Below, piece by piece: positions 1,595 through 17,617 of a stretch of DNA of 64,000 nucleotides. Within the stretch, counting starts at the first letter, position 1. Each line of letters starts with the position of its first letter. Origin of the DNA: Terriglobales bacterium (GTDB lineage: Bacteria; Acidobacteriota; Terriglobia; Terriglobales; Acidobacteriaceae). The stretch is taken from contig JBHGAZ010000021.1 of the NCBI GenBank assembly GCA_041946765.1, positions 4,279 to 68,278 on the forward strand, read 5' to 3'. A model generated the notes under the pieces. That model did not search any database. It saw only the letters and a program-made list of their open reading frames with translations, and was not told where the DNA came from. Made by a program: the position numbers and the translations under genes.

Positions 1595-1684
1595 TGGCGG
1601 AGGGAGAGGGATTCGAACCCCCGGTACCCTTCCGGGTACAGCGGTTTTCAAGACCGCCCGTTTCGACCGCTCACGCATCCCTCC
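1595..1684 (-). tRNA. tRNA-Ser (anticodon UGA), class II, CCA encoded
   Basis: The minus-strand 90 nt GGAGGGATGCGTGAGCGGTCGAAACGGGCGGTCTTGAAAACCGCTGTACCCGGAAGGGTACCGGGGGTTCGAATCCCTCTCCCTCCGCCA folds by hand as follows. It has a 7-bp acceptor, a 3-bp D stem and an anticodon stem GCGGT/ACCGC with loop CTTGAAA. It also has a long variable arm GTACCC-GGAA-GGGTAC and a T arm GGGGG-TTCGAAT-CCCTC. Confidence 0.92.
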
Positions 1685-1688
1685 GCGG
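1644..1688. repeat. attL-type direct repeat (tRNA-Ser nt 1-41 plus 4 nt upstream)
   Basis: gttttcaagaccgcccgtttcgaccgctcacgcatccctccgcgg is identical to 17573-17617. Confidence 0.85.
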
Positions 1689-1730
1689 TCCGTTATCAAC
1701 AGTTTAGCAGGTGTTAGTGCGCCAAAACCC

Positions 1731-1746
1731 ACTGCACGCACTGCAC
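1731..1746 (+). promoter_or_regulatory. Two tandem ACTGCAC heptamers (candidate Int arm-type / Xis binding sites)
   Basis: actgcacgcactgcac lies between attL and the int stop codon. The same heptamer is clustered at 3137-3154 (inverted) and at 17443-17478. Confidence 0.35.
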
Positions 1747-1753
1747 AATAAGC

Positions 1754-2896
1754 TCAATTCACCGTAGCTGGCTGGTTCAGCGCACGCTCCAAGGTGTCGC
1801 GAAGCGCCGCTACGGTCTTCTCCTGCCGTGCCTTGATGTAGATGTTCGTGGTCGTCGCCAGTTGTTCATGCCTCAAGATCGCCTGAATGATCTTGTCCTG
1901 CACTCCCAACTCGTACAGATTCGTCGCCAGTCCACGCCGGAACGCGTGCCAACCGTGCCACTCAAGACCTGCTGTCTTCAGCGTCGGCGCAATGTAGGTG
2001 CGAGCAAGCGAGTCGAGATTCAGACCGCGGTCATCGTCGTAACGGAATATACGTCCGGTACTCGGATTCCCCTGTAACAGCCGATGCTCTTCCAGGATTC
2101 CCGCGAGCTGAGCGATGACTGGTACGGGGGCCTTACTCCGTGGCGTCTTCGGCTCGTACACATGCTTTTCCCACACTGACCGGCTTACGTGCAGCGCACC
2201 ATCGTGATAGTCAGCCCAGTCGAGACCGCGCAGTTCACCTCGACGAAGCCCCGTAAATGCCGCAGTTGCTACCACCGCCCGCGCTGAGCCGCGCAGCACC
2301 ATTAGCATTTTCGTGATCTCGTCGAGTGAATAGGCATAGGTCTCCTCGCCTGTGCGCCCGCCGGGAATCGACACGCCATGCATCGGGTTTCCTGTATTCA
2401 GAAACCCGTACCGCCGCGCGTGCGTAAAAACCCCTGACAGAAATGCCTTGATGTGTCTCAGCGACATCTTTGTCAGCTTTGTCACCCGCGCCAGTGTGTG
2501 CATCAGAAGCTCGCCATCTGAGGGCTTGAAGTCCCGCAGCAGCTTCCTCCTAATGCGAGACTGCAAGTGGTTCTCATAGATGTGCCGATATCCTTTGTGC
2601 GTGGAGGCGCGTTTGTTCTCCTTCACGAACGGCAGATACTTGGTCTCGACAAACTGCCCGATGGTCATCGGGGGCTCATCTTTCGAGGCTCCAGCGTTTA
2701 CATCCGCCAGGAAATCCTGCGCCAACGGTTTCACCGAGCTTTCTGTTCTGTGCTGGTCATCCCGCGGTGCAAGTCTCCGAGCGATCTGCGCCCGCTTGAT
2801 GGAACCGTCAGCTTGCACGACATGATCGCGATAGCGTACGTACCACCAACCGTTTTCAGCGTAAATGTACCCGTGTTGGTAGCGAGTCCTTCTCAT
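1754..2896 (-). CDS. int: Tyrosine-type site-specific integrase
   Basis: 380 aa from the ATG at 2896 (MRRTRYQHGYIYAENGWWYVRYRD...). The C-terminal recombinase signature is ...LRRGELRGLDW...HGWHAFRRGLATNLYELGV...LRHEQLATTTNIYI (R...HxxR...Y). The track ORF extends to 3064, but that part overlaps xis. Confidence 0.88.
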   Translation of the reverse strand: MRRTRYQHGYIYAENGWWYVRYRDHVVQADGSIKRAQIARRLAPRDDQHRTESSVKPLAQDFLADVNAGASKDEPPMTIGQFVETKYLPFVKENKRASTHKGYRHIYENHLQSRIRRKLLRDFKPSDGELLMHTLARVTKLTKMSLRHIKAFLSGVFTHARRYGFLNTGNPMHGVSIPGGRTGEETYAYSLDEITKMLMVLRGSARAVVATAAFTGLRRGELRGLDWADYHDGALHVSRSVWEKHVYEPKTPRSKAPVPVIAQLAGILEEHRLLQGNPSTGRIFRYDDDRGLNLDSLARTYIAPTLKTAGLEWHGWHAFRRGLATNLYELGVQDKIIQAILRHEQLATTTNIYIKARQEKTVAALRDTLERALNQPATVN

Positions 2897-3123
2897 TTCT
2901 GCTCCTTTCTTGCGGACTCGCCCTCTACCGTTTTGGACCCTTGTCGCTGCCGTGCGAACCAGTCGTCTAGATCGGGGCAGCCAAACTCGAATCGAACATA
3001 GCGGCCAAGCCGGACGTGGGGAATGGGGTCCTTTGCACGGGAGCGGACATAATCGCGTATCCACGATGCAGGCACCTTCCAGCGCCGCGCCAACTCAACC
3101 GAATCAATGATCTCGCAAGCCAT
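2893..3123 (-). CDS. Excisionase / AlpA-like HTH DNA-binding protein
   Basis: 76 aa, MACEIIDSVELARRWKVPASWIRDYVRSRAKDPIPHVRLGRYVRFE..., the pattern of small excisionase-family HTH proteins. Its stop overlaps the int start (ATGA at 2893-2896). Confidence 0.7.
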   Translation of the reverse strand: MACEIIDSVELARRWKVPASWIRDYVRSRAKDPIPHVRLGRYVRFEFGCPDLDDWFARQRQGSKTVEGESARKEQK

Positions 3124-3136
3124 ATTACTGGGTAAC

Positions 3137-3154
3137 GTGCAGTAACTGTGCAGT
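3137..3154 (-). promoter_or_regulatory. Two ACTGCAC heptamers (inverted orientation) just upstream of xis
   Basis: Plus strand gtgcagtaactgtgcagt, 14-31 nt upstream of the xis ATG (3123). Confidence 0.35.
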
Positions 3155-3217
3155 AGCCTTTCTAAGTCTTTGATTTCACGCGGCCAGAACTCGACCGGCG
3201 GTTAGGGAGACCGCTGG

Positions 3218-3706
3218 TCAAAGTGATTCCATCCGCGTCTTCAGTCCGGCGACAACCGCGCGAAGACTCAACGCGTAATAAACGCCGTTTCCCTCCGTGA
3301 TTTGGGGCGGCTGCCTTGAGAAATCGACCTTTGGGCCCTCTTTGCCACGCTTAAGCAGGACCCACCACCAGTGCGCCTTCCTGCCCTGCTCGTCGATGCC
3401 CAGGAGATCGCGATCTTCGACTTCGCTTAGCACGGTAACAATCAGCTCGGGCGTGAAGCCGTCTTTCCACATGCGTACGGCGACTCCTAACCGGTACACG
3501 TCAGTCTCACTGAACAGTCGTCGCGACCCACGCCGCCCCTCCGGACCGAGCCGTCCTGACGCCGCAAGCGGATAGCTCTTCACGTCTAAGAATTTTTGTA
3601 AGCGCCAAACGGGTATCTGAAGAATGTCGGCGACTTCTCCGGTACCAAATTGACGGACAGGCAAGGCCGCGGTTTCGAGCACGTCTTTGTATGTTCTGCG
3701 CTGCAT
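3218..3706 (-). CDS. Putative HTH DNA-binding regulator (MerR/excisionase-like fold), island-encoded
   Basis: 162 aa from the ATG at 3706: MQRRTYKDVLETAALPVRQFGTGEVADILQIPVWRLQKFL...RLFSETDVYRLGVAVRMWKDGF. It is divergent from the 3791 gene across an AT-rich spacer. Confidence 0.5.
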   Translation of the reverse strand: MQRRTYKDVLETAALPVRQFGTGEVADILQIPVWRLQKFLDVKSYPLAASGRLGPEGRRGSRRLFSETDVYRLGVAVRMWKDGFTPELIVTVLSEVEDRDLLGIDEQGRKAHWWWVLLKRGKEGPKVDFSRQPPQITEGNGVYYALSLRAVVAGLKTRMESL

Positions 3707-3734
3707 AACTCCCTGAGCATTACACATTATGATT

Positions 3735-3743
3735 TGATATAAT
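3735..3743 (+). promoter_or_regulatory. Extended -10 element TGATATAAT in the divergent island regulatory region
   Basis: tgatataat lies within the AT-rich stretch ttacacattatgatttgatataataataac, about 48 nt upstream of the ATG at 3791. Confidence 0.4.
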
Positions 3744-3790
3744 AATAACGGTTTGGGGGTTGCTCCCGCAACTCTGTGGGAAGGGAAAAT

Positions 3791-4018
3791 ATGACGGACA
3801 AAAAGGCCACTGAATCCATGCTGAGCCCACGAAGCGCGGCTCAACGGCTTGGCACAACGCTTGTCTGGATTTACCACGAACTTTGGGCTGGGCGGCTGCC
3901 GGGTGCGCGCAAGGTGGGCAGCACGTGGCGAATACCGACGGAAGTAATCGAAGCACGGCTAAAGGCGAAGAACGAGCACGCCACTCGGCGCGTTACTCGC
4001 CGTGAGCATGGAAGATGA
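3791..4018 (+). CDS. Excisionase-family HTH DNA-binding protein
   Basis: MTDKKATESMLSPRSAAQRLGTTLVWIYHELWAGRLPGARKVGSTWRIPTEVIEARL. GGGAAGGGA lies upstream of the ATG. The stop overlaps the next start (ATGA). Confidence 0.6.
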   Translation: MTDKKATESMLSPRSAAQRLGTTLVWIYHELWAGRLPGARKVGSTWRIPTEVIEARLKAKNEHATRRVTRREHGR

Positions 4019-4320
4019 CTTCGGCAACTCATGCGTTGAACACACCTACCATTTACGACGAGCACGAACTCGCTTTAGCCGCGTTCCTTTGGGCTAAAGG
4101 CCACCGTCTCCTGGAGGTAATCCCGGACCGCCAGCGCCGAGTGCACAAGGTTTTCCGATTCGCTGCGGACGAGCGGATCGGGAAGGACATTGAGGACTAC
4201 TGGAACGGCGCAACGGTGCACGCGCGGGACTTCGCGCGCTGTATCGCGGAACTGAAGTCGTTGGTTCATCGACCCCAGAGTGTAAGAAGTACTCCGCGGG
4301 CGATTGCACCGCGACTGTGA
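4015..4320 (+). CDS. Small hypothetical protein, translationally coupled between the HTH and rep-like genes
   Basis: 101 aa with ATGA/GTGA overlaps on both sides. I have a faint memory of DUF5659-type small phage/plasmid proteins (LAAFLWAKGHRLLEV...FRF), but this is not verifiable here. Confidence 0.45.
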   Translation: MTSATHALNTPTIYDEHELALAAFLWAKGHRLLEVIPDRQRRVHKVFRFAADERIGKDIEDYWNGATVHARDFARCIAELKSLVHRPQSVRSTPRAIAPRL

Positions 4321-5861
4321 GCTGCAATGACACGGCTCACATACGAGAACGAGACATGCATACGCAGGACATACAGAGCGGCGCTGTGACTGACAGCGCT
4401 GGAACCACAACGACTCAGCTTGAGAACGCGAAAACGCTAGTTACACAGACCACACCGCAACAACCCGAACATACGAAGAAGCAGAGTAACGCTCCACCGA
4501 GGACTTCCCCAACCGCCGTGGTCTCTGCTCCCGCGCGAGCCCTCAGCGAATCTCGAAACGGCAGTACTCACCGGAATGCATCGCTTGCTTTTCCTGAGAC
4601 TGGCTACGTAGGGGTTGCGGCGAAGCTAGCCGAGTTACTGAGTCAGCACTACGAGTCTCCCAAGGAGTTCATCTACATCGACATTCTGGCGCTAGTGGGT
4701 CTGGCAATGAGTGGACGTGTGAGGATGGATTTCGGCGACGTACTTACCCAACCGCGACTGTACATCATAAAGGTCGCCCTGTCGGGCTGGGGACGTAAAA
4801 GTTCTTCCACAAAGCTTGCGCGGAACTATATTTCCGAAGCGATGGAGCGGGCGAACGAGCTTAGGCTTAAGGCAGCGCAGCACCAGGATGCGCTCGCAAC
4901 GGCGGAGGACATCGAATACTTCCGCGTTGTGCCGGGTGTTGGCAGCGCAGAGGGACTCGTCAACGCATTTGCACTCTGCGGACGATGTGGAAAGCCAGAA
5001 CATCACGGCGGTGGCCATGCCTATACTCCTCAGCAGCGCATCGCGCTGAGCTACGACGAACTGCGGCGGTTTGAAAAGAAAGCAGGGATTCAGAACGCGG
5101 CGCTGCTACCAATGGTTCAAGAGCTGTACGACAGCAACGAGTATGCGAATTATACGAAGGAGTCTCAGCTAGAGGTTAAGAACGCGCATCTGGTATTTAT
5201 TTCCAACACGACTACTGAGAACTTTGAAAACCTCGTCGACGGATCAGAACTGGCGGATGGCGGCTTTCTCAACCGCAACTTCTTTATGACCGGCGAGCGG
5301 ACGAAGAGAATTTCACGTCCGAAAGCGCCGCCAAAGCCCGTGGTTCAGCCGATCATTGATGAGTTAGCAAGACAGCTCGCAAAGGTACCCACTGACGGCA
5401 CGGAGCTTGTCGTCGGGATGACGGCAGAAGCGGAGCGAATGTGGGATGCGTACTATGAGACTTTGGAAGAGACCGAGGAAAACGCGCGCTTGGACAGCAT
5501 CGGCATACGGCTCATGCCTTTGCTCGCGTTTACTTCCGGCAAAACCGAAGTGGACGCTGACCTGATGCAGTCGATCCTTGTGATCCTCGACTTCCAGGCC
5601 CGCGTACGTGAGATACTTCGTCCGAACCTAGGCGAAAATCCACAAGCGAAATTGGAGAACAAGATTCTGACCGTGTTGCGCAGACGCGGGGCGTTAACAG
5701 AGAGCGAGTTGAAGCAATATACGAACGCTCGACGCGTCGGGAGCGGGGTGTTCGAGAACGTCTTCCGGCACCTCCGCACGTCGAGACAGGTTATTGGCAA
5801 ACAGGTGCGAAGCGGGAACCGGACAGTGAACAAGTACGAGTTGAATCCCGAAAGCATTTAA
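4317..5861 (+). CDS. DUF3987-like replication (primase/helicase-associated) protein
   Basis: 514 aa. The segment FIYIDILALVGLAMSGRVRMDFGDVLTQPRLYIIKVALSGWGRKSSSTKLARNYI matches the recalled DUF3987 core with a degenerate P-loop. An alternative ATG start is at 4356. The iteron array follows immediately. Confidence 0.55.
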   Translation: MSCNDTAHIRERDMHTQDIQSGAVTDSAGTTTTQLENAKTLVTQTTPQQPEHTKKQSNAPPRTSPTAVVSAPARALSESRNGSTHRNASLAFPETGYVGVAAKLAELLSQHYESPKEFIYIDILALVGLAMSGRVRMDFGDVLTQPRLYIIKVALSGWGRKSSSTKLARNYISEAMERANELRLKAAQHQDALATAEDIEYFRVVPGVGSAEGLVNAFALCGRCGKPEHHGGGHAYTPQQRIALSYDELRRFEKKAGIQNAALLPMVQELYDSNEYANYTKESQLEVKNAHLVFISNTTTENFENLVDGSELADGGFLNRNFFMTGERTKRISRPKAPPKPVVQPIIDELARQLAKVPTDGTELVVGMTAEAERMWDAYYETLEETEENARLDSIGIRLMPLLAFTSGKTEVDADLMQSILVILDFQARVREILRPNLGENPQAKLENKILTVLRRRGALTESELKQYTNARRVGSGVFENVFRHLRTSRQVIGKQVRSGNRTVNKYELNPESI

Positions 5862-5866
5862 GACCC

Positions 5867-6133
5867 GTAGTCACGTAGTCAGTGCCGTAGTCGCGCCTTG
5901 ACTACGGTGCAAGTGCATGAAAAAGCAAAACATAAGAGCAACTGTAGTCATGTAGTCAGCCTCCGCATAACTGCGAGGGCGGAAGGCTGATGGTCTCGTC
6001 CGCGCGGCACAGGCCGAAGAAAATCCGGGGCTCAAGGACAATATGACTACATGACTACGCTTTTAGCTAAGCGCCTCTGTTGCATGTGGTTATAGCGTAG
6101 TCACGCTCTGACTACATTTGACTACGTGACTAC
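5867..6133. repeat. Iteron array: 12 copies of GTAGTC(A)/(T)GACTAC, candidate replication origin
   Basis: Forward copies are at 5867, 5875, 5887, 5944, 5952 and 6097. Inverted copies are at 5900, 6045, 6053, 6110, 6120 and 6128. Four pairs have 8-bp spacing. About 0.13 hexamer hits are expected by chance in 267 bp. Confidence 0.8.
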
Positions 6134-6830
6134 GGATTCCCGATCCACCCGCGGTACAAGACCGACCGTGGTCTTGCGTGGTCTTGTTGGTCTTGCTGGT
6201 CCGGCTGTCACGTGCTGCGCAACCGTCCGCGCGCGAGGCTGGCGCAGGACGCATCCTCTGGTACCCGCGTAACGTCTCTCATATGCGATCCGTTTGTATG
6301 TATCGCAGCACGACCTGTCCCCTCCGCCCGCACACAAAAACGGGGCGCGAGAGCGCGGCGGGGACGTTCTCCCGCCTCAGCGAAGCGGTGCATTTCGCGA
6401 CGCTGCAGATGGCGAAGTCAAAGAGAAATTGGCGGCGTCTGTGCTGAATCCGCGGGCAGAGAAGCTCCATGAAGTGGGACCAAGTCGCTTTGCGCTGCGT
6501 GCCCCACGGGGTCACGAGCAGCCCGCCCCGAAGCATGGGATCGGTGGGGGGCAGAACGGTGGGCGTAAAGGAGAAAAGGCGTACGAGGAGGTTGAATCGA
6601 CGGGAAGAAAAGCTCGATTAAGGAGACAGTCCGCATGGGTGCGCTCGCGCCCGCGGCGCTACAAAAGTATGCTCAAAAAGCGACCCCCGGTCGGCCAGGA
6701 GGCCCCAGACGCCCAGGACGCCCGACGCCACAGTGCGGTGGCGCATGTTGGGACGTTTCTTCAGCCCGACTACCTCCCGACGAGGTGCCGCCGTGGGATA
6801 TACGATGATGGCAGAAGACGGCAGCTATGA

Positions 6831-7286
6831 GTGGTGCATTCCATGAATACACGGCATGAATTTGTTTGGGGCATTGAACCGCCCGTCCCTGGACACTGGC
6901 ACAGGCGCTATGACTTGGGCGGATTTGAGGTGGAGGTAACGGCGAACAAGGTGGAGGCGCGTGGCGCAGCCGAACCGGATCAGAAAACGCAGCGGCTTCG
7001 GGCGGAGGCCGTCGTCCAGAACCTGATCCGGGAGATCGGGTATAGGGAGAAGACGCGCTATGCCGTCAGCTTCGGCGCATTCGCCCGATTTGATCCGGCG
7101 ACGAACAGGCGAGATATAGACGTGTATGCCGAACCACTCTCGGTGAAGTTTGGCTTCGGCGATAATCTGGAGACTACCCTTACCGCCCCAGACGGCACTG
7201 TCGTTGCCGATTCTCGGCAGCAGCGGGTCCAACGCACCTTAACTCGGGCGGAGTTGATGGGGAAGGATGGACACTGCATCGCATAA
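6831..7286 (+). CDS. Hypothetical protein; coding signal continues in shifted frames to 7595
   Basis: 151-aa ORF (GTG at 6831, or ATG at 6843). Protein-like translation resumes in another frame at 7286-7519 and returns to the first frame at 7446-7595. Confidence 0.4.
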   Translation: MVHSMNTRHEFVWGIEPPVPGHWHRRYDLGGFEVEVTANKVEARGAAEPDQKTQRLRAEAVVQNLIREIGYREKTRYAVSFGAFARFDPATNRRDIDVYAEPLSVKFGFGDNLETTLTAPDGTVVADSRQQRVQRTLTRAELMGKDGHCIA

Positions 7287-7661
7287 TCGACTTCCGTCTA
7301 GCGTACTACGCCGATCCTGAGAAGAACCTGGATCACCTGTTCAACATCGTTGAACTTGCGGAAGAGAGGTTTGGCGGCGAGAAGAACGCGGCGGCGGCGC
7401 TCGGTGTTAGCCGCAACGATCTGGAGAGGCTAGCAAAGATCGCCAATGATTCCAGTATACGCACCGGCAGGCATCCGGGACAGATCCTACTTCCTCAGCG
7501 TGATCCGACCGCCCGGTGAAATCAGCGACTGTGAGCGCGTGGCAGAGGCGATCATCGAAGGGTATGCACAGTATCTTCAGGCTCGTCAGCCGTGATTCCG
7601 GCGAGTCCCAATTGCTCACTTACTGGGAGAGGCATAGAATTGCCGCTCTCAGGATAACTGA

Positions 7662-8060
7662 ATGAATGCAACCTATCTTGATTTTGCTCAGTGCAGATGC
7701 GGATACCGTACTCCAATCCGACCCTCCAAGCCTGTGATACCAAATGAAGATCAAGAATGGACAGGAACGGATGACGAGTTTCTATTTGTCGCATGTAGCG
7801 AATGTAAGTGGGTGTATAGCGTCGAGACCAAAAATCTGGTAGAGGCTCAATCGCTGTGGGGGTTGGAGCCGTATAACCCCGGCGCTCCCATGCGGCTATT
7901 TCCAGTATCACTGCCATGCGATGAGGCAGGTTGCGGCACTCAGCTACCAGTAATCGCAGTGCGGAAGTCCAATACCAGCGCCGCAGCCTTGCAAGCAGAG
8001 ATCGCGAACTGGCACACGGAAGGGCTGAGGTGTCCACAACACCCGATTTCAAAGCCATGA
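7662..8060 (+). CDS. Cys-rich hypothetical protein (possible zinc-ribbon)
   Basis: 132 aa with CxC, CxxC and CxxxxC spacing (CRC, CSEC, CDEAGC) and a late Cys-x2-His (CPQH). The stop overlaps the next start. Confidence 0.5.
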   Translation: MNATYLDFAQCRCGYRTPIRPSKPVIPNEDQEWTGTDDEFLFVACSECKWVYSVETKNLVEAQSLWGLEPYNPGAPMRLFPVSLPCDEAGCGTQLPVIAVRKSNTSAAALQAEIANWHTEGLRCPQHPISKP

Positions 8061-8308
8061 GACAAATTCTGAAAGTTGTCGCTATTGTCGGTCTGCTGTT
8101 TTGGGGTTACTGCATCTGGCGAATTAACGCTACCTGGCAGCATCGCGATACCCTCAACAAGACTATCTGGTGGGTATTCCTCGGTCTGCTCGGTGGTCTA
8201 TGCATTGGCCTGCTGGGCCGCTGGAGTTGGATTCCTATCGCGGGGCTGTTGCTGGTTATCCTGACCATCAGTGGCGCGTGGCTCGTTCGACTCCTTTTTC
8301 GACCTTAG
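8057..8308 (+). CDS. Small membrane protein (2-3 TM)
   Basis: MRQILKVVAIVGLLFWGYCIWRINATWQHRDTLNKTIWWVFLGLLGGLCIGLLGRWSWIPIAGLLLVILTISGAWLVRLLFRP. ATGA coupling to the upstream gene. Confidence 0.55.
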   Translation: MRQILKVVAIVGLLFWGYCIWRINATWQHRDTLNKTIWWVFLGLLGGLCIGLLGRWSWIPIAGLLLVILTISGAWLVRLLFRP

Positions 8309-8719
8309 TTCAGTATCAACACGGAATTAGACGCATGAACGACGACAAACAAGTACGGCAACTCACACAGGCGTTGAATGCTGCCTTTGACCTAATTCCG
8401 ATCTAACCGAAGACATAGACGATCTCGGTCTTCGGCTCGCAGTGTTGCAAACCATTGTGCAAGAGAAGATTCCAAATCCTGCCGAAGCATTCGAGCCGTT
8501 GTACACTCTCGCCAAAAACGACGCCGCAAAACGTGATCGCGAATTTGTCGCGCACGTCCAACAAGCAGTTCATAATCTACGAAAGAAGTCTGTGCAGTAG
8601 CACTATCAGGGGCGCTCACTCAGCACCCTCGGCGCCAGCAACACACTTTTGCCCCAGTGCCGGACATCCTGCTCCATTGATTCAGAGTTGCAAGTGAACT
8701 AACATTGCTGCTCTTCTGA

Positions 8720-9370
8720 ATGACCTACTTACTCATCACCTTGACCGCGCTGGTCGTCCTCATCCTTGCGATCTACTTCCGCTGGATGCGGATCGTTTTG
8801 GCCGTCCTAGCTGCCGTCGTGGCCGTCTTTGCCATCTATTTCTTCTACGTCGAACCGAAGGCGCGGGAGAGTGAACGGGAAGCGTCGAAGCATCGCGTTC
8901 CCGTCAGCGAGGTGGATTTTGGAGACTTGAACCTGGCGAAGGAGGAATACGGTTCTGACTACCGACTGAAGGGGCGGATCAGGAATCGGTCTGGGCATGA
9001 ACTGTTGGGTGCGGAAATTCTGGTGAAGTTGGAGGATTGTCTCCATCATCCTTCCGCGAAATACAAACGCATACCGGCGCATGAGGAAGTCCAACTCCCG
9101 GACGGAAAGGTCGTGCGGTTCCCGAAGGGTTCCACCGAAGCGGAGATCATCGCTGCGATCTCCCGTGATTTCCCGTTGGTTGGTTCTGCGCTCGACTCTG
9201 ATGTGAAGTGTGAAACGGTCGGTCAGTCCTCGGTGGAAGTAGTTGTGGAGGTCCCGCCCAACCAAACCCGCGCCTTGGACGCATCCGTCCATTTCGCTTC
9301 CTTGCCTTCCCCACGCGGGTTCTACGTCTGGCGATACGTGCCGGTGAATGTACGGGCGAAGCAGCGTTGA
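8720..9370 (+). CDS. Membrane-anchored hypothetical protein
   Basis: 216 aa with two N-terminal hydrophobic helices followed by a charged soluble domain. Confidence 0.5.
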   Translation: MTYLLITLTALVVLILAIYFRWMRIVLAVLAAVVAVFAIYFFYVEPKARESEREASKHRVPVSEVDFGDLNLAKEEYGSDYRLKGRIRNRSGHELLGAEILVKLEDCLHHPSAKYKRIPAHEEVQLPDGKVVRFPKGSTEAEIIAAISRDFPLVGSALDSDVKCETVGQSSVEVVVEVPPNQTRALDASVHFASLPSPRGFYVWRYVPVNVRAKQR

Positions 9371-9551
9371 AGTTCGCACTATCGTTGATAACAGTTTCCC
9401 ATGACCGTTCCCGTTGACAACAACGAAGCATGAACACTTCTCGCTAGCAGGCCCGCTCGCCGCATAAGTCACTTTACTTTATCGAACTACCTTAGACGCG
9501 GCTATACTGGAAACAACAGACACATCCCCTCTGCTCCCTGCTATCACCCCG

Positions 9552-9754: not shown

Positions 9755-10219
9755 ATGAGGAAGCCTGCGTCAATCGTGCTGCTAATCGCCCTTGCAGTCG
9801 AAGTTTGCTGGGCAGGATTGGGTAGCGACAAAACAATGTACAAAGGTGGAACCGTCAATACGATCAAAGAAGGTACTGAAGGCAAATCCTCAGCGAAGGA
9901 TGAGAAGAATTTTGTATTTGAATACAAAAAAGGAAAACTGGTTATTCCTTACGAGCGTATTGACAGCTTAGAGTACGGCCAAAAAGCAGGACGGCGCGTT
10001 GGTACCGCGTTCCTCGTCAGCCCTGTTTTCATCTTTTCGAAAAAACGGAAGCACTATCTGACCATTGGTTATACCGACGAAAAGGACAAGCAGCAAGCTG
10101 TGGTACTTGAGTTGGGCAAAGACGTGATCCGTGTGACGCTCGCAAGCCTTGAAGCACGCACCGGTCGCAAGATTGATTATCAGGACGAAGAAGCGCGTAA
10201 GAATGGCCACGGCAACTGA
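9755..10219 (+). CDS. Secreted/lipoprotein-like hypothetical protein
   Basis: 154 aa with the signal peptide MRKPASIVLLIALAVEVCWA. Confidence 0.55.
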   Translation: MRKPASIVLLIALAVEVCWAGLGSDKTMYKGGTVNTIKEGTEGKSSAKDEKNFVFEYKKGKLVIPYERIDSLEYGQKAGRRVGTAFLVSPVFIFSKKRKHYLTIGYTDEKDKQQAVVLELGKDVIRVTLASLEARTGRKIDYQDEEARKNGHGN

Positions 10220-10237
10220 GTAGCGACAGGAGGACTG

Positions 10238-10927
10238 ATGCCAATCATAACCTTGCTGACCCTTGTGTTGGCTCTGCAGGCCGGACAGCCGCAGTCGCCC
10301 GCTCCCATTCAGAGTCAACCCCCCTCATTGCCAACGGCGCAAGTCTCGAAAGAAAGCAGAAAAGATGATGTGGATGTTCGGCAAAAGTTGGTCACGGCCA
10401 AACGGATCTACGTCGATTCGTTCGGAGACGATGCAATTTCCAAGCAAACGCACGCAATGGTGATTACCGCTTTGATGGAGAGCAAGAGGTTCATAGTTAC
10501 CGAGAACAAAGACAAAGCTGACGCCGTTCTCCGTGGCACTGCGGTTGAGAAAACTTCTCAGGAGCTTCACGCGCTGAATGATAAAGCTGCCGCGGGAACA
10601 GCCGTAGGAGGACACAGCGGTTCGCTTAGCGGTTCATGGCACAATGGCACAGGTAGTATATCCGGCAGCTCCAGCGGCGGTTTCGCAGCACACTCCATGG
10701 CAGCCGATGACTCGACCGCCTCGACTGAAACGATTGACCATGCCCGTCTTGCAGTTCGCCTGGTATCCGCTGATGGCGACGTGATCTGGGCTTCTACGCA
10801 GGAGAGCAAAGGCGCAAAATACAAGGGTGCCAGTGCCGATGTCGCGGCGAGGATTGTCAAGCAACTCTTGCGCGACATCGAGAAAATAGAGAAGCAGCCC
10901 GCGGGAGCTGCACCGCAACTGAAGTAA
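10238..10927 (+). CDS. Secreted hypothetical protein with a Gly/Ser-rich insert
   Basis: 229 aa with an N-terminal signal-like helix. KRIYVDSFGDD...ITALMESKRFIVTEN is loosely reminiscent of the CsgG/LpoB-type lipoprotein fold. Confidence 0.5.
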   Translation: MPIITLLTLVLALQAGQPQSPAPIQSQPPSLPTAQVSKESRKDDVDVRQKLVTAKRIYVDSFGDDAISKQTHAMVITALMESKRFIVTENKDKADAVLRGTAVEKTSQELHALNDKAAAGTAVGGHSGSLSGSWHNGTGSISGSSSGGFAAHSMAADDSTASTETIDHARLAVRLVSADGDVIWASTQESKGAKYKGASADVAARIVKQLLRDIEKIEKQPAGAAPQLK

Positions 10928-11002
10928 GCGTTGCGCCGGGTTCATGCCTTAGTTCAGGCGTGCTGCATGCAGTTGCTGTCAACCAGATTTGGTGTTCTTC
11001 GA

Positions 11003-11503
11003 TTATTCCACGCTCCGGCGTGCTTCAGCTAGGAACTCCCGCAGCGCGTTGTCTAGTTCTGCCTTGTCCTTGATCGCGAAACTTCGCATTAGCTTTTCGT
11101 ACCGTTTCTCCAGGAGCGGCAGGTTTTGGAACGGATGTGGACGCTGCTTGGGGTCGTCTTCCGGAGCGGGTTCGAGCGGAAACCGGAACTGGCGCTCGCT
11201 ACCGCAGCCCTTACACATCGCAGTGATGCAGTCGTGCTCGCCTATCTGCGCGTCGCAGGCGAGTGTCTGCCGGATGATTTCGTACCCGCCACCGCAAACG
11301 CAGGTGGAGGCGCGGACTGTTTCGTATTGCTTGGCAATGGACCCGACCGGCGGCTGGGCGTCCGCGAGGCCGGTGTTTTCTTCCATTGTTGAGGTCCATT
11401 TTTGCCCAACAAGTAGGGTCTCCAGATATTTTGCGATTAACTTTTCCTGCTCCTCACGGGACAGAGCATCTTTGCTCGAACCCTTTGACTTTGAGGAACT
11501 CAT
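11003..11503 (-). CDS. Cys-rich hypothetical protein
   Basis: 166 aa from the ATG at 11503, with GGAGG 7 nt upstream. The central cluster is CVCGGG...C...C...CKGC. Confidence 0.5.
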   Translation of the reverse strand: MSSSKSKGSSKDALSREEQEKLIAKYLETLLVGQKWTSTMEENTGLADAQPPVGSIAKQYETVRASTCVCGGGYEIIRQTLACDAQIGEHDCITAMCKGCGSERQFRFPLEPAPEDDPKQRPHPFQNLPLLEKRYEKLMRSFAIKDKAELDNALREFLAEARRSVE

Positions 11504-11538
11504 TCCGGCACCTCCAGAAAATGTAGGTCGGCACAACA

Positions 11539-12024
11539 TCAAAGACCTCTCGCCCGGTATCTCCTCTCGATTTCGGCTTCAAATTCGCTAAGTCGCTGGT
11601 GCTGCTCGGCCCTGGTGTCTTCGGGGCCATAGTAGGCATACGCCATGTCAGACATAATTTCCATTTCTTTGCGTTCTTCCGGAGAGAACGCCCGCTCAAA
11701 GACTCGCTTGTCGTGGGCGTCCATTGCTTCGGTCGTCCAGCAGCCGATCATCGCCCAGCAGAATAGTGTCCAAAGCACAAAGCCGAGAACGTTCGCTGAG
11801 GCTGAAAGCCAGGAAGGCGACACCATGTCGGTGTCCAGCTTGGTTAAGAATTGGCGAACATGGCTTCCGACAAAAGGCCGGACCCATAGGAGCCAAGAAA
11901 GCACGCCAACCGCGATGCCGACGCAATCGGCAATCCTTGTGATCCGGGTGTACCATTTCGTCCGTCTTAGCAGAATGGGCATGGTTCCTGTCGCCTCCCG
12001 AGACTGCGCCGACACATGTTCCAT
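11539..12024 (-). CDS. Membrane hypothetical protein
   Basis: Starts at MEHVSAQ (alternative MPILLRR at 11982). It has hydrophobic helices IADCVGIAVGVLSWLLWV and VLGFVLWTLFCWAMIGCW and lies upstream of 11003..11503 on the same strand. Confidence 0.45.
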   Translation of the reverse strand: MEHVSAQSREATGTMPILLRRTKWYTRITRIADCVGIAVGVLSWLLWVRPFVGSHVRQFLTKLDTDMVSPSWLSASANVLGFVLWTLFCWAMIGCWTTEAMDAHDKRVFERAFSPEERKEMEIMSDMAYAYYGPEDTRAEQHQRLSEFEAEIERRYRARGL

Positions 12025-12087
12025 CGTGGTACGAAGAGTAGCATTAGTATCATTGCGAATTAAAGAATTAACGTCGATACACAAGGT

Positions 12088-12285
12088 ATGCAGCCAATCG
12101 GCAAGCGTACCCTGCAAGTAAACGTCAAAATGAGTGCGGACGATTTTGAGCTACTGAAACGTGCAGCAGCCGCTCTCTGGCCTGACGCAATTCTGAGCAA
12201 TTCCGGTATCGTTTTGGGCTTGGCAAAGATCGCCGCAAGAGACGTATTGCGAGAAAAGCGCGCCAAACCCAAGACTATGCGTTAG
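12088..12285 (+). CDS. Ribbon-helix-helix-like small DNA-binding protein
   Basis: 65 aa: KRTLQVNVKMSADDFELLKRAAAALWPDAILSNSGIVLGLAKIAARDVL. This reads as a beta-strand plus two helices, the RHH pattern. Confidence 0.45.
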   Translation: MQPIGKRTLQVNVKMSADDFELLKRAAAALWPDAILSNSGIVLGLAKIAARDVLREKRAKPKTMR

Positions 12286-12340
12286 TCCTCGGTCGATTCC
12301 TCAAACCTTCCGAATTGCTTCTGCGAGTGCCCTTGTGTTG

Positions 12341-12862
12341 CTACGCGGCCTGCCGCCGCGCTTTCTGTTCCGTCTTGCTCAGAACCGTCGCATCCACGTA
12401 CACGCCGATAGTCACAGCGAATTGGTAGCCGCCGTCGAGGATCAGCAGAGCGCGTTTGTGTCCTGCGTCCATGGCTTGGGTGAGCGTCGCGCGCAACGCC
12501 GCCACGCCATTGTCCGGGGTAGGGTCAGCATACGCCGCGCCGTGTACTTGCCCACCGGTTGAGCTGTCCATTACCACGCCCTCGCCGAACTCGTGGATTG
12601 TTTTGGGAACTGGCATCGAGACGCCGATCACGTGCTTGGCCTGCCGCACGCGGTCGAAGTTGAGCGCCGCGATATTCTCCGGGCTCAGCTCGATCCAGTT
12701 CCCCGCGTCCGCGATGTACTCATTCGCGGCACAGGGGAGGCACATCGGGCCGTTGTCGGTGTTGATGTAGTACAGCTCCCAGGTGTAGTTCTCGACCATC
12801 GTGCGCTCGCTTCGACTCCGGGCTTCGGAGTTCAGGCGGTTGATTTCAGGCAGGGACCACAT
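12341..12862 (-). CDS. Hypothetical protein
   Basis: 173 aa from the ATG at 12862 (MWSLPEINRLN...), with AAAGGAG 11 nt upstream. No recognisable motif. Confidence 0.5.
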   Translation of the reverse strand: MWSLPEINRLNSEARSRSERTMVENYTWELYYINTDNGPMCLPCAANEYIADAGNWIELSPENIAALNFDRVRQAKHVIGVSMPVPKTIHEFGEGVVMDSSTGGQVHGAAYADPTPDNGVAALRATLTQAMDAGHKRALLILDGGYQFAVTIGVYVDATVLSKTEQKARRQAA

Positions 12863-12907
12863 GGTGATGCGCGCTCCTTTCAAGGTTCAACGCGCACCAG
12901 GAGGGCT

Positions 12908-12935
12908 GAAAAGAAAACTCGCCGATCAGGCGAGT
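12908..12935 (-). terminator. Intrinsic-terminator-like hairpin on the minus strand (ACTCGCC-TGATC-GGCGAGT followed by TTTTCTTTTC)
   Basis: 7-bp GC-rich stem at 12917-12935 with a T-run (read on the minus strand) at 12908-12917. It sits in the gap between the RT remnant and the start of gene 12341..12862. Confidence 0.4.
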
Positions 12936-13081
12936 GTGGAGAGTTGGTTCGGAACTACGTTCCGCACATCGAGCCCTTTCTGGGCTCAAGCACCGCTCGC
13001 TCTCCGCGTCGGTTGCTGTGCTCGGGGGATAGGCCGAGCCGCTCCTGATGCTGAAATGAAAGATGCTGCTGGACGACAACT

Positions 13082-13978
13082 TTGTTGCTTGCGGGCCAGT
13101 GTCGTGAGAGTTTAGGGTCACAAGGCAGGCTGCGACGACACTATCTGTGTGGCGGTGTTAAAGGACGCACAGTCATTGACAACGTGTCCATGCATATCGG
13201 CACGCCCGTTTTGGTTACGCTGGACATCAGGAATTTCTTTCCAACAATCACGCCTACTGCGGTTTATCGCGTCTGGTCGGAAATTTTGGGGTGCTCCCCT
13301 TCTGTTTCTAGTGTGCTGACACGGCTAACCACATTCAAGCGGCACTTGCCACAGGGATCGGCAACCAGCACCTTGCTCGCAAATTTAGTGCTCTACTCGG
13401 TTGATGCTCCTATACGTGAGGCGTGCCGTGCTAACGGCGTTCAATATTCCACATGGGTTGATGACATCGCGTTGTCGGGGAAACGCGCGCCAGAAATTAT
13501 CCAGACGGCTGTAGATGCATTACGAAAAGCAGGGTTCAGCGTTCCTCACCGCAAGCTGAAGGTCATGGGCACAGGCGGCAGAATGATCCTCAATAAGGTT
13601 CTCCTCGGGCGATTTCCAGGGGTTGTTCGCGAGCGCGTGGCTCAACTGAGGTCAGGGATTCACAAGCTGCGGACTGGTGCAGTTCCGGGCTGTGAGCTGG
13701 GCAGGTACTGTCTAAGCCTGCAAGGGGCCATTCACCACTTATCGTCAATAGTGCCTCGACGCGCTCAACACCTCCAGGCGGAATACGACGAAGTGTGCGA
13801 ATCGGTTTTCGCGACGGCTCGCAGATTCGCTGCCGCGTCGAGGTACCTCTCAACCGTTTTAATTTCTTGGCTCCCAGCAATGTGTTTGCTAACCTGTGCG
13901 CACTTTCAGAGTTCAACGTCGGAGATGCCGGAATGCCGCCTGACGCTGGCGTGCGTGCATATGGGACCGCGCCGCTGA
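13082..13978 (+). pseudogene. Retron-type reverse transcriptase lacking the N-terminal ~90 aa (RT motifs 1-2)
   Basis: GGVKGRTVIDNVSMHIG (NAxxH-like), LDIRNFFPTIT, LPQGSATSTLLANLVL, YSTWVDDIALSG (YxDD box), KLKVMG. It is colinear with my recollection of retron Ec86 RT from its NAxxH region onward. None of the three forward frames in 12884-13081 encodes the IPKK..G..R fingers region. The tail after ...AEYDEV looks non-genuine. Confidence 0.6.
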
Positions 13979-16263
13979 GTGAATCCGATACGCGCTCGAA
14001 GCTGATAGACCCCGCGATCCATGCGCGCGGATGGACGGAGGATTTGATCCGCCGCGAAGAGACGGCAGGCGCGATCCAGATGATCGGCGGCAAGCCGCGC
14101 CGTCAGGCCAAGGGCCGCCTTGATTACACGCTGCGCATCAAGATCAATCCCGACACGCAGCCAGTTGCCGTGGCGCTGATCGAGGCAAAAGCAGCGCACC
14201 TCCCACCGAATCACGGTCTGGAGCAGGCGAAGGCGTATGCCGCCTGCAAGCGGCTGAACGTGCCGTTCGTGTTCTCCAGCAACGGCCATCAATTCCTTGA
14301 GTTTGACCGCCTTACCGGGCTGACCTCCGCCCCGCGCTTCATGGCGGAGTTTCCGACGCCCGCTGACCTCCGCGCGCGATACGAGCAGCACATTGGCTTC
14401 AGCCTCAATGATCCTGCCGCCAAGCCGATGCTCACGCGCTACTACGGAGGCGAGGCGACGCGGCGCTATTACCAGGACGCCGCCATCCGTGCGGTGCTGG
14501 AGAAGATCGCGCGGTGCGAGCAGACGGGCGAACCGAAACGCGCCCTGCTGTCGCTGGCCACGGGTTCGGGCAAGACGTTTATCGCGGTCAACCTGCTGCG
14601 CCGCATTGCTGACGCGGGCCGGCTTCGCCGCGCGCTGTTCGTCTGTGACCGCGATGAGCTGCGAACTCAAGCTGCCGCGGCCTTCCAGAATCTCTTCGGC
14701 GCAGATGCGGCAACAGTGTCCAGCGGCAAGCCGCAGAAGAACGCTCGAATCCTGATTGCGACCTACCAGACGCTCGACGTGGACAACGAGGAGGCGACCG
14801 CCAATTTTCTCACGGAGAATTACCCGGAGGACTACTTCTCCCACATCGTCATTGACGAGTGCCATCGCAGCGCGTGGGGCAAATGGTCGCAAGTGTTGAC
14901 GCGCAATCCGAAGGCGGTGCAGATCGGGCTTACCGCTACACCGCGCAAGCTACACGTCTCAGAGCAGACGCGAGAAGCGCAGGCGGACGAGCAGATCAAC
15001 GCCGACAACATCCGGCACTTTGGTGAGCCGGTTTACGAGTATGACGTGGCGCAAGGGATTGAGGACGGCTATCTCGCGCTGTGTGAAATCCTCAAGGGCC
15101 GCGTAAATCTGGATCAAACCGGAATCACGATTGAGGATGTGCTGGCACGCAATCCGAAGGACGCCAACACCGGCCAGCCCGTCACCCGCGCGCAGCTCAA
15201 GCAGCTATACGAAAAAACAACCTTCGAGGACCGCATCCTGCTCCCGGATCGCGTGCTGGCGATGTGCCAGGATTTATTCGCATACCTGCTGCAAAGCGGC
15301 AGGCCGGAGCAGAAAACGATTATCTTCTGCGCCCGTGATCGCCATGCCGATGATGTGGCAGCCACGATGAACAATCTTTATGCCGAATGGTGCGCCCGCA
15401 ATGGACGCCCGCGCCAGGAGCCTTACGCTTTCAAATGCACGGCAGCTTCCGGCGGAGGCGAACACCTCGCTGATCTGGGGGGCGCGTCACGCTCCCACTT
15501 CATCGCCACGACCGTTGATCTGCTGACAACCGGCGTAGACGTGCCATGCGTGCGGAACATCGTGTTCTTCAAGTACGTGCGCTCGCCAATCGCGTTTTAC
15601 CAGATGATTGGTCGCGGCACTCGCCTTGACCCGCCCACCGGCAAGCTGATGTTCCGCGTGTACGACTACACGGACGCGACACGGTTGTTCGGCGAAGAGT
15701 TCATCACGAAGGTCGCAGGGCCGCGTAAACCGAAAGATGATGATGTGCCGGAACCGCCTCCGCCCCCGCCGGAACCGCAAATTATTGTCGAAGGCTTCGA
15801 GGTCCAGGTTACGCCCGCGGGCCGCTATATCGTCACGGAAGTGGATGGGAAGGCGATGCCGGTCACGGTCGAGGAGTACAAGCAGCGGCTCGCGCGGCGG
15901 CTGGTCGCTGAGGCCGCAAGCCTGGACGACTTCCGTGCGCGCTGGATTCATCCGGCAATGCGCCGCGAGCTGATGGGTCGCTTGCCCGATGCGGGTCGCT
16001 CCCCGCTGGTGCTGCGCGAGCTGGAGCAGATGAACGATTACGACCTCTACGACGTGCTGGCCGATATTGGTTATGGCGCTGCGCCGCGCACCCGCATGGA
16101 ACGCGCTGAGGCGTTCACTACTACATCGGAAGAGCCGAACGTCTCGCCAAACGGATTTTCGATCACGCCAACCACACCGCTGACCGGTACTACAATTTCT
16201 GGAATCTTTTTTCAGCATTCGTGGTCAGCAAGAAGTACGTTCCAGAGATCGAAAGAGTCCTAA
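13933..16263 (+). CDS. Orphan HsdR-like protein (PD-(D/E)xK nuclease N-domain + SF2 helicase + EcoEI_R_C-like tail)
   Basis: 776 aa from the ATG at 13933 (GGAGA upstream). Motifs: SESDTRSKLIDPAIHARGW, D..IEAK nuclease motif, SLATGSGKTF (I), VIDECHRS (II), GLTATP (III), TTGVDVPCVRNIVFF (V), QMIGRGTRL (VI), then ...DLYDVLADIGYGAAPRTRMERAEAF. No hsdM or hsdS is present in the window. Confidence 0.8.
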   Translation: MPPDAGVRAYGTAPLSESDTRSKLIDPAIHARGWTEDLIRREETAGAIQMIGGKPRRQAKGRLDYTLRIKINPDTQPVAVALIEAKAAHLPPNHGLEQAKAYAACKRLNVPFVFSSNGHQFLEFDRLTGLTSAPRFMAEFPTPADLRARYEQHIGFSLNDPAAKPMLTRYYGGEATRRYYQDAAIRAVLEKIARCEQTGEPKRALLSLATGSGKTFIAVNLLRRIADAGRLRRALFVCDRDELRTQAAAAFQNLFGADAATVSSGKPQKNARILIATYQTLDVDNEEATANFLTENYPEDYFSHIVIDECHRSAWGKWSQVLTRNPKAVQIGLTATPRKLHVSEQTREAQADEQINADNIRHFGEPVYEYDVAQGIEDGYLALCEILKGRVNLDQTGITIEDVLARNPKDANTGQPVTRAQLKQLYEKTTFEDRILLPDRVLAMCQDLFAYLLQSGRPEQKTIIFCARDRHADDVAATMNNLYAEWCARNGRPRQEPYAFKCTAASGGGEHLADLGGASRSHFIATTVDLLTTGVDVPCVRNIVFFKYVRSPIAFYQMIGRGTRLDPPTGKLMFRVYDYTDATRLFGEEFITKVAGPRKPKDDDVPEPPPPPPEPQIIVEGFEVQVTPAGRYIVTEVDGKAMPVTVEEYKQRLARRLVAEAASLDDFRARWIHPAMRRELMGRLPDAGRSPLVLRELEQMNDYDLYDVLADIGYGAAPRTRMERAEAFTTTSEEPNVSPNGFSITPTTPLTGTTISGIFFQHSWSARSTFQRSKES

Positions 16264-16536
16264 TCGCATCAATGCCGACCGCAGTCAACAGCTCCACGCC
16301 GCGAATGCAAAAGGTTAAGCTACCCCGTAACGTCGCAGCGCAGCTAAGACGCATACGAAAGAATCAGGCTAACCCTATCACTCAAGTTGATGTAGAAAAA
16401 ATGCTCAAAACTATAGCGGCCTATGCGGGATAATCATACGAGTCAAAACGTCCCGAACCACAATTGTTCAGACTCAAGCGCCGCGCCGCGTGATTTTTAG
16501 CAGATAGAAGCGATGAGATGCATATAATTCCGTCGT

Positions 16537-17331
16537 ATGTACCTGCTGGCGTGCGACGAATCAAATCGTAATCCATCAGACCGGAGAAGATTTTTCATTT
16601 ACGGTGGCATCATCGTGGATGGGGATAATTGCCTCACAATCCACCAGTTCTTCGAGCGTCTGCGCATTCAGTACGGCATCACCTCTGGATGGAATTTGAA
16701 GTTTGACGCCGCAGCGCGCCCAGCGACTCTTAGCGCCGAACGCTTTGCAGAGGTCAAGAACCGCGTGCTCGAAGCTGCGCCAGGTTGGGGCGTCCGCTTC
16801 ATCGCCTATGTTGTCCACCACCGAATTGCGGACACGCGGGCAAAACAGGAGCGAGCCTTTCGGTCGGCGATGAACACTATTCTGTATCAGTTCAATGGAT
16901 TCTTACGACAACATGACGATCATGGCGTGTTCCTAATTGACCGCTTCGACGGCGGTGCCTGTCTTGACTTGCTCAAGTCCATCTTCACCAGAGGACTCGA
17001 TCTCCCGGCGCAAAATGCCAGAAGGGCCATTGACCGCGTCACGATGATGGGCGCGAGTTGTCTGGGCGCGAGCCATTTGATGTCGTTGCTGGATATCGTC
17101 CTTGGAGCATTTCGCTACTGTGTTAACGCCCGTGCAGAGAAATTCGAGGTGGCACGCCTGCTTTATTCAAAGCTGCAGCCGCTGCTTGTCACTGCTCCGG
17201 GTAATCCACGGGTTGAAGAATGGGGACTCTTCCTGCGACCACAGGAGGTGCGGGCCGCAGATATTCAGGCTGAGTACACCCAGCTTCGTCAGCACCTCGC
17301 GCGTTTGGGGCAGCCAGAGCGGGCAGTGTAA
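16537..17331 (+). CDS. DUF3800 domain protein
   Basis: 264 aa. The N-terminal MYLLACDESN matches the recalled DUF3800 signature (yiDESG). Confidence 0.6.
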   Translation: MYLLACDESNRNPSDRRRFFIYGGIIVDGDNCLTIHQFFERLRIQYGITSGWNLKFDAAARPATLSAERFAEVKNRVLEAAPGWGVRFIAYVVHHRIADTRAKQERAFRSAMNTILYQFNGFLRQHDDHGVFLIDRFDGGACLDLLKSIFTRGLDLPAQNARRAIDRVTMMGASCLGASHLMSLLDIVLGAFRYCVNARAEKFEVARLLYSKLQPLLVTAPGNPRVEEWGLFLRPQEVRAADIQAEYTQLRQHLARLGQPERAV

Positions 17332-17442
17332 GCCCACAAAAATTCCATATCTCCGCGTCATAGAGAAATTGAAATCCACCCAGCGCGGTACACCGACGTT
17401 CGGTTTGGCCGAAGCGGAGGGGGTCTTCTGGCTTGTGCCCCC

Positions 17443-17478
17443 ACTGCACATTAAGAGTTTACTGCACAGTAGCTGCAC
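17443..17478 (+). promoter_or_regulatory. Cluster of ACTGCAC-type heptamers next to attR
   Basis: ccACTGCACattaagagtttACTGCACagtagCTGCACatta: two exact copies and one 6/7 copy, 95-130 nt inside the right island end. Confidence 0.35.
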
Positions 17479-17572
17479 ATTACTGCCCAAATGCGGGCGA
17501 TTTGCCCGAATTAGGGAACTTGATTCCGACTGTAAATACTTGAGCCCGAACGGTAGAGGGTGAGTCACCTTT

Positions 17573-17617
17573 GTTTTCAAGACCGCCCGTTTCGACCGCT
17601 CACGCATCCCTCCGCGG
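17573..17617. repeat. attR-type direct repeat: orphan 5' half of tRNA-Ser(UGA)
   Basis: Identical to 1644-1688. Read on the minus strand, the sequence after nt 41 is AAAGG... instead of CGCTG, so no anticodon stem or 3' half can form. Confidence 0.85.

Follow-up and report, generated by a model that had tools for sequence, protein, structure and literature searches.

This study concerns a 64-kb stretch of a Terriglobales genome (contig JBHGAZ010000021.1 of assembly GCA_041946765.1; the whole stretch of 64,000 nt is called the window below) and a 15.9-kb island within it, which is very probably a site-specific integrative element inserted into the only tRNA-Ser(UGA) gene of the assembly. The assembly is a metagenome-derived draft of 70 contigs and 3.8 Mb, the other contigs of which are cited as C45, C67 etc. 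The island is positioned 5′ of the tRNA gene and is bounded by a perfect repeat of the 5′ half of that gene, and its tyrosine integrase gene lies beside the intact tRNA on the same strand. Insertion of this polarity is rare but already documented, and the tRNA-Ser island is a real element that is ordinary in kind. It illustrates the minority 5′ polarity cleanly, with well-defined boundaries, in a soil phylum that has been little studied, and is also a testable case of an essential tRNA expressed from mobile-element DNA, with the displaced native promoter pointing into the far end of the island.

Structure and boundaries of the island

The sole tRNA gene found by ARAGORN in the window is a tRNA-Ser(UGA) on the minus strand at 1595–1684, and the Rfam tRNA model matches 1598–1684 of the same strand with 53.5 bits. 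ARAGORN finds no second copy of tRNA-Ser(UGA) on any contig of the assembly, so that the gene in the window, rebuilt as described below, must be expressed and must work. A direct repeat of 45 nt with 100% identity, reported in the initial annotation and reproduced here by a repeat search and by direct reading, is found at 1644–1688 and 17573–17617, with a spacing of 15,929 bp. In tRNA numbering the repeat runs from nt −4 to 41 and comprises the acceptor stem's 5′ strand, the D arm, the 5′ strand of the anticodon stem, the 7-nt anticodon loop (raw nt 33–39) and 2 nt of the 3′ strand of the anticodon stem; the tRNA calls and the sequence agree with its earlier description as the 5′ half of the gene (nt 1–41) plus 4 nt upstream. 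The flanks diverge right outside the repeat (g at 1643 versus t at 17572, and tc from 1689 versus ga from 17618). The 4 nt of upstream identity, CCGC, are taken to mark a chance agreement between the island-borne leader and the host's own leader. The features that define the site are as follows.

1583–1597, minus strand: terminator-like hairpin and T-run at the 3′ end of the tRNA, on the chromosomal side (terminator scan)
1595–1684, minus strand: intact tRNA-Ser(UGA), with nt 1–41 inside the repeat and nt 42–90 chromosomal
1644–1688, no strand assigned: left repeat copy, the integrase-proximal core of the attachment (att) site, tRNA nt −4 to 41 with the anticodon loop included
1689–17572, no strand assigned: island body between the repeats, bounded by the 45-nt repeat and marked by a G+C dip
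17573–17617, no strand assigned: right repeat copy, the displaced orphan 5′ half of the tRNA, in minus-strand orientation and pointing into the island

The island body, 15,884 bp in length and located 5′ of the tRNA, has a G+C content of 0.51–0.55 versus about 0.59–0.60 in the flanks. The integrase open reading frame (ORF) stops with a TGA at 1754–1756, and 69 nt (1685–1753) separate it from the 5′ end of the tRNA on the same strand, as had been annotated. The geometry of the repeat and the tRNA also supports the earlier view that the intact gene joins an island-supplied 5′ half to a chromosomal 3′ half. The related claim, that the orphan 5′ half faces the island and keeps its native upstream DNA, holds as well; a TG and a TAAACT are present 26 nt upstream of it.

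In the mechanism that we propose, a tyrosine integrase would insert the 15.9-kb island at the anticodon loop of the sole tRNA-Ser(UGA) gene, the cargo being a replication-type module, a retron-type reverse transcriptase and an HsdR-like protein. The attP site of the island would include tRNA sequence that begins a few nucleotides upstream of position +1 and reaches just beyond the anticodon loop. Integration would displace the chromosomal 5′ half and its native promoter by 15.9 kb, and the working gene would combine a 5′ half from the island with the 3′ half of the chromosome. A promoter box of the tRNA type, TGcTAAACT, 16 nt before +1, would also come with the island, and transcription of the rebuilt tRNA would start within island sequence, possibly supplemented by read-through from the integrase gene (int). 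In the anticodon stem-loop, two inverted half-sites would flank an overlap of 7 nt and make the core symmetric, and because of this symmetry elements of the family could carry either tRNA half, which offers a route to the 5′ polarity as long as an element on the 5′ side supplies a promoter as well.

The integrase family and the probable position of strand exchange

The integrase gene of the island is as follows.

1754–2896, minus strand: tyrosine integrase, 380 aa from a conserved MRRTRYQ start, matching Pfam PF00589 (9.5e-14) and the PHROG_1 integrase profile (1.9e-48)

All of the catalytic residues, R218, K250, H317, R320, H343 and Y353, are present and are invariant in a 22-sequence alignment. 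More than 2000 homologues were found at E <= 1e-20, most of them labelled Terriglobia or Acidobacteriota, and the polarity of insertion was surveyed at 81 fetched genomic loci of such homologues (L-numbered below). A tRNA lies within about 50–160 nt of the int stop codon at 70 of the 81 loci (at one of them the distance is 575 nt). At 59 of these 70 loci the tRNA is on the opposite strand, with the island on its 3′ side in the conventional manner, and at 11 it is on the same strand, with the island on its 5′ side. The 5′ polarity therefore recurs in about one of six members of the family, and annotation tools that expect 3′ fragments alone would miss about one in six of its islands. The tRNAs used by the 11 same-strand loci are Lys-UUU, Arg-CCU, Arg-UCU, Ser-UGA and Thr-CGU.

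Four same-strand loci (L021, L024, L084 and L067) were extended by 20 kb in search of 5′ fragments, and three of them yielded perfect ones: nt −2 to 38 at 14.8 kb from the tRNA-Lys (L021), nt −5 to 39 at 13.7 kb from the tRNA-Arg (L024) and nt 1 to 40 at 20 kb from the tRNA-Thr (L084). The genome studied here contains a second 5′-side island, of 16.4 kb, at the tRNA-Arg(CCU) on contig C67 (89047–105533); its integrase is 42% identical to that of the tRNA-Ser island, 7 nt separate its int stop codon from the tRNA, and 16.4 kb upstream there is a 5′ fragment of 39 nt that matches perfectly (nt 1 to 39). An IMG/VR contig has the same layout of int followed by tRNA-Ser(UGA). The related 5′-side islands have only the integrase in common with the tRNA-Ser island, together with a weak DUF3987 match, and the integration module is therefore the conserved part.

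At some loci both sides of one tRNA are used. The tRNA-Ser(GCU) of L032 is flanked by integrases of the family on both sides: the one on the 3′ side is conventional, and the one on the 5′ side is encoded on the tRNA strand with its stop codon 43 nt before the 5′ end of the tRNA. A perfect 5′ fragment of tRNA-Ser(GCU) (nt −3 to 39) lies 5.1 kb farther along. At L024, 3′ fragments (nt 32–78) lie on the opposite side of the same tRNA. The stretches occupied on both sides by islands of the family or their remnants are 11208–16450 in L032, 17382–36882 in the extended L024 and 31285–31557 in the extended L084, where a 92-aa integrase fragment lies immediately 3′ of the tRNA-Thr. A separate, well-supported clade of the same integrase family (L027, L037, L045, L051 and L052) targets tRNA-Sec (selC) with the conventional 3′ polarity.

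The end points of the repeated blocks locate the probable crossover. In all six 5′-side cases the block of identity ends 0–3 nt past the anticodon loop (2 nt in the tRNA-Ser island), and conventional 3′ blocks start 1 nt before the loop (nt 32–90 of tRNA-Ser(UGA) in L059, nt 30–76 of tRNA-Thr in L065 and nt 32–78 in L024). From these end points the 7-nt anticodon loop is the sole segment common to 5′-type and 3′-type blocks, and strand exchange probably takes place within it, as judged from this overlap. Williams reportedly defined in 2002 a symmetric anticodon-loop sublocation class of tRNA-integrating integrases; in the tRNA-Ser island the att block has its boundary at the loop, and the flanking symmetry is that of the anticodon stem.

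Mobility of the island

Pairs of a short motif near the island ends bear on whether the element may still be mobile. The heptamer ACTGCAC occurs 13 times in the window, and six of the copies form three tight pairs at the island ends (1731/1740, 3137/3148 and 17443/17461), a placement as expected of arm-type integrase sites, for which the pairs are candidates.

1731–1746, plus strand: ACTGCAC pair between the int stop codon and the tRNA, candidate arm-type integrase sites (motif count)
3137–3154, minus strand: inverted ACTGCAC pair upstream of int, candidate arm-type sites, forming an inverted repeat with 17460–17483
17443–17467, plus strand: ACTGCAC pair some 110 nt in from the right end, candidate arm-type sites (motif count and inverted repeat)

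The searches for an empty site weigh against site-specific integration, as does one locus of the family, L067, at which the 5′ fragment is partial (20 nt only). When the joined flanks were compared with 40 relatives, among which there is no genome of the same genus, the tRNA itself was the only match. In a tblastn search, the flanking FdnG and tetratricopeptide-repeat (TPR) proteins had no match at the tRNA-Ser loci of 11 relatives, all from other genera, and the flanks showed no synteny there. Exact patterns of the repeat with the native flank and of the repeat with the island flank gave 0 hits each in metagenome contigs. The only matches to the exact flanking proteins were short Logan contigs from a single sample, broken at the tRNA or at the repeat and uninformative on occupancy.

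A doubtful alternative is that the island is a fixed remnant, no longer able to excise, with a repeat that records a past integration. The absence of junction patterns from the metagenome contigs would fit this view, as would the lack of a clear excisionase (the sole candidate is a sub-threshold MerR-type helix–turn–helix) and the reverse transcriptase of the island, which matches its profile only from position 72 and so suggests some decay of the cargo. However, the two 45-bp repeats match perfectly, the integrase ORF is uninterrupted and encodes all of the catalytic residues, and the paired candidate arm-type repeats are kept at both island ends.

Expression of the rebuilt tRNA

Two promoter-like sequences bear on the expression of the tRNA.

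1701–1709, minus strand: extended −10-like box TGcTAAACT, island-supplied, ending 16 nt upstream of +1, the putative promoter of the rebuilt tRNA
17640–17645, minus strand: native promoter-like TAAACT, with a TG before it, 26 nt upstream of the orphan 5′ half

The native tRNA-Ser(UGA) genes of four relatives (L008–L011) have the same TGcTAAACT motif at the same 16-nt spacing, and boxes of the form TAnnnT 7–18 nt upstream are typical of tRNAs across the genome studied here. The island leader from the box to +1 is identical at 20 of 22 positions to that of the native tRNA-Ser(UGA) of L036, and the island therefore seems to carry a genuine tRNA-Ser promoter and leader from another host lineage. 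At the far end of the island, the spacing of the 17640–17645 box and the bases that follow it resemble the region upstream of native tRNA-Ser(UGA) in L059 and L015. The initial annotation had proposed that expression of the tRNA now depends on island DNA or on int read-through, and the TGcTAAACT box and the leader match lend support to this proposal at the level of sequence.

In related 5′-side loci the int stop codon lies merely 7–27 nt from the tRNA, and a TAAACT overlaps the int stop codon at six of the 11 5′-side loci versus one of 61 3′-side loci, as well as in one IMG/VR contig. The overlapped int codons read …V-V-N-stop (GTT GTA AAC TAA/TGA). The second 5′-side island, on C67, also has a TAAACT box overlapping its int stop codon.

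The −10 type and the conservation of the island-supplied TGcTAAACT box would be consistent with promoter activity, and it is rather probable that an island-borne promoter drives the rebuilt tRNA. Two points speak against this reading: a strict two-hexamer sigma-70 scan found no −35/−10 pair upstream of either tRNA copy, and at the 5′-side Arg loci the TAAACT doubles as the code for the C-terminal V-N-stop, where coding constraint and promoter are not fully separable. The alternative, that the rebuilt tRNA is transcribed mainly by int read-through and not from a tRNA promoter in the island, appears rather unlikely. It would be helped by the strict scan and by a terminator scan that found no terminator between the int stop codon and the tRNA, and at the related 5′-side loci, with a gap of 7–27 nt, any int transcript must enter the tRNA. 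Nevertheless, a TGnTAAACT box stands at the native tRNA-Ser spacing, and the enrichment of TAAACT at int stop codons is confined to 5′-side loci. A single-copy tRNA needs steady transcription, while integrase genes are usually weakly expressed.

Authenticity of the repeat

That the repeat arose in assembly, or from a local segmental duplication that copied half a tRNA gene without involvement of the integrase, would have in its favour only the draft, metagenome-derived nature of the assembly and is hardly credible. Each copy has its own unique flanks, the integrase adjoins the intact tRNA as at 70 of the 81 homologous loci, five further loci, spread over four other genomes and a second contig of the same one, have perfect 5′ fragments that likewise end at the anticodon loop, and independent Logan contigs agree with both junction flanks. 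Assembly duplication was rejected on the distinct flanks and on the recurring layout of int followed by tRNA. The Logan contigs break where the sharing of k-mers predicts (the Logan contig L020 starts at 17588, one 31-mer from the end of the repeat). A chance repeat was also rejected, a perfect match of 45 nt being too long for coincidence, and so was a misread tRNA strand.

Evolution of the rebuilt side

A maximum-likelihood tree of 82 integrases was labelled by the side of the tRNA on which the island lies. The side label needs at least six changes on this tree, and L084 (tRNA-Thr, 5′ side) falls within a clade of 3′-side Thr integrases that is well supported. The hypothesis that the 5′-side integrases arose once was rejected by the AU test (p = 2.7e-6), for a group that was named after the tree had been seen. 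As a tentative reading, the side of the tRNA that is rebuilt may be evolutionarily labile in the Terriglobia lineage, and the 5′-side elements may have fused a tRNA promoter to the end of int and thereby coupled themselves to the supply of the tRNA. The fused promoter would be the −10 box TAAACT joined to the last integrase codons and the stop codon. If this is true, an essential single-copy tRNA would be transcribed from within or just after the integrase ORF, and tRNA supply, formation of the 3′ end of the integrase mRNA (by RNase P cleavage) and retention of the element would be coupled in a way that is not known to have been described for tRNA-integrating elements.

Comparison with known systems

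Among the 3919 islands of the Islander database (Hudson, Lau & Williams), 159 have a 5′ tDNA fragment and 3760 a 3′ fragment, and its configuration filter explicitly admits a 5′ fragment upstream of the tDNA and a 3′ fragment downstream (PMC4383910). In the tRNA-Ser island, a tyrosine-recombinase integrase gene lies inside the candidate island, the intact tDNA and its cognate end fragment have the same orientation and are 15,929 bp apart (within the Islander range of 2–200 kb), and the 5′ fragment is upstream of the tDNA, the tRNA being on the minus strand and the fragment at higher coordinates. Like the 5′-fragment islands of Islander (PMC4383910), it combines a tyrosine integrase with intact tDNA at one end and a same-orientation 5′ fragment upstream at the other, and its anticodon-centred att site corresponds to Islander class A. 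Unlike those entries, it comes from an uncultured Terriglobia genome outside the 2015 database, the consequence for the tRNA promoter has been traced and both polarities are found in one integrase family.

In Klebsiella pneumoniae, islands integrate at the 5′ end of the arg2A tDNA, and some strains have a second island at the 3′ end (bioRxiv 10.1101/2020.11.02.365908). As in the tRNA-Ser island, these islands lie upstream of the tRNA and their repeat is the 5′ part of the tRNA, and the occupancy of both ends resembles that at L024 and L032. However, the arg2A repeat comprises the 5′ acceptor strand and the D-stem and ends in the D-loop, whereas that of the tRNA-Ser island reaches the anticodon loop. 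The Klebsiella insertions are due to a distinct integrase clade, I.d, whereas in the tree of the Terriglobia family 5′-side integrases are intermingled with 3′-side ones. ICEAfe1 is cited as anticodon-loop-targeting in the same preprint (bioRxiv 10.1101/2020.11.02.365908). With anticodon-loop-targeting integrases the family shares an att block bounded by the 7-nt loop, a stem that provides inverted core half-sites and the use of several tRNA identities. The dusA-specific integrases direct their elements into the 5′ end of the target gene (PMC4482086); such elements must likewise rebuild the start of the gene and its expression signals, although their target is a protein-coding gene and not a tRNA.

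The initial annotation had called the polarity of the tRNA-Ser island unusual. This stands insofar as it belongs to a minority class, but the class was already catalogued, both in Islander and for Klebsiella arg2, and it accounts for about one in six members of the present family. What may be novel is the interleaving of both polarities in one anticodon-loop integrase family, the fusion of a tRNA promoter box to the int stop codon and the abundance of such elements in Terriglobia.

Other genes of the island

Beyond the integrase, profile searches recognize the following genes, and several further island ORFs are without recognized function.

3218–3877, minus strand: 219-aa ORF with a weak MerR-type helix–turn–helix (Pfam MerR_1, 6.4e-4, below the curated cut-off)
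4015–4320: DUF5659 ORF preceding the DUF3987 gene (profile match)
4317–5861, plus strand: DUF3987 or primase–helicase-like replication protein (PF13148, 2.3e-12; PHROG helicase, 3e-21, and primase, 2.7e-7)
13082–13978, plus strand: retron-type reverse transcriptase, cargo (Pfam RVT_1, 3.6e-13; PADLOC RT_VI, 1.3e-46)
13795–16263, plus strand: HsdR-like helicase–nuclease subunit of a type I restriction system, cargo (Pfam ResIII, 3.9e-34; PADLOC REase_I, 1e-88)

The 219-aa ORF could possibly encode a regulator or an excision factor, an uncertain assignment. The profile to which the reverse transcriptase aligns only from position 72 is that of PADLOC, and the true start of the HsdR-like protein is probably downstream of the stop codon of the reverse transcriptase. 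A phage satellite of the P4-like or PICI-like kind would be expected to have an integrase, a regulator, a primase–helicase replication module with an origin beside it, no structural genes and a demonstrated helper phage. The island contains the integrase, the weak helix–turn–helix ORF, the DUF3987 primase/helicase-like gene and an inverted repeat beside the latter; no capsid, terminase or packaging genes were recognized in the island. The inverted repeat, of 17 nt and perfect (CCGTAGTCACGTAGTCA / TGACTACGTGACTACGG, with a 237-nt spacer, at 5865–6135), directly follows the DUF3987 gene and would fit an origin from which the island replicates. Just upstream of the retron-type reverse transcriptase, 12934–13056 on the minus strand gives a sub-threshold Rfam SAM-I/IV riboswitch match (34.5 bits versus a gathering score of 41.1; E = 0.031), which is more likely a structured non-coding RNA of the reverse-transcriptase system, or chance, than a riboswitch.

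Flanking chromosome

The island is set in ordinary chromosome, with a long TPR protein gene on the left and a selenocysteine-containing formate dehydrogenase gene on the right. On the left, 1462–1555 of the window starts with a 21-nt near-copy of the 3′ end of tRNA-Ser and is one copy of a palindromic repeat of about 75–95 nt, which has no Rfam match and can be folded into a long, imperfect hairpin (GGGATTCG…CGAATCCC). Copies of this repeat are scattered in related genomes, where tandem arrays with copies about 103 nt apart are found too (for example G001:C5:128056–128335, G004:C136 and G017:C10), and the copy in the window may be an element of the repetitive extragenic palindrome (REP) or miniature inverted-repeat transposable element (MITE) kind rather than an old att scar. 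On the right, the ORF list splits the gene for the formate dehydrogenase alpha subunit (17991–21083) at an in-frame TGA at 18573–18575. Rfam SECIS_3 matches 18570–18628 with 68.2 bits, above the gathering score, and a tRNA-Sec gene is present on contig C45 of the same genome. Because of the in-frame TGA, the SECIS_3 match and the presence of tRNA-Sec, 17991–21083 is read as one selenoprotein gene.

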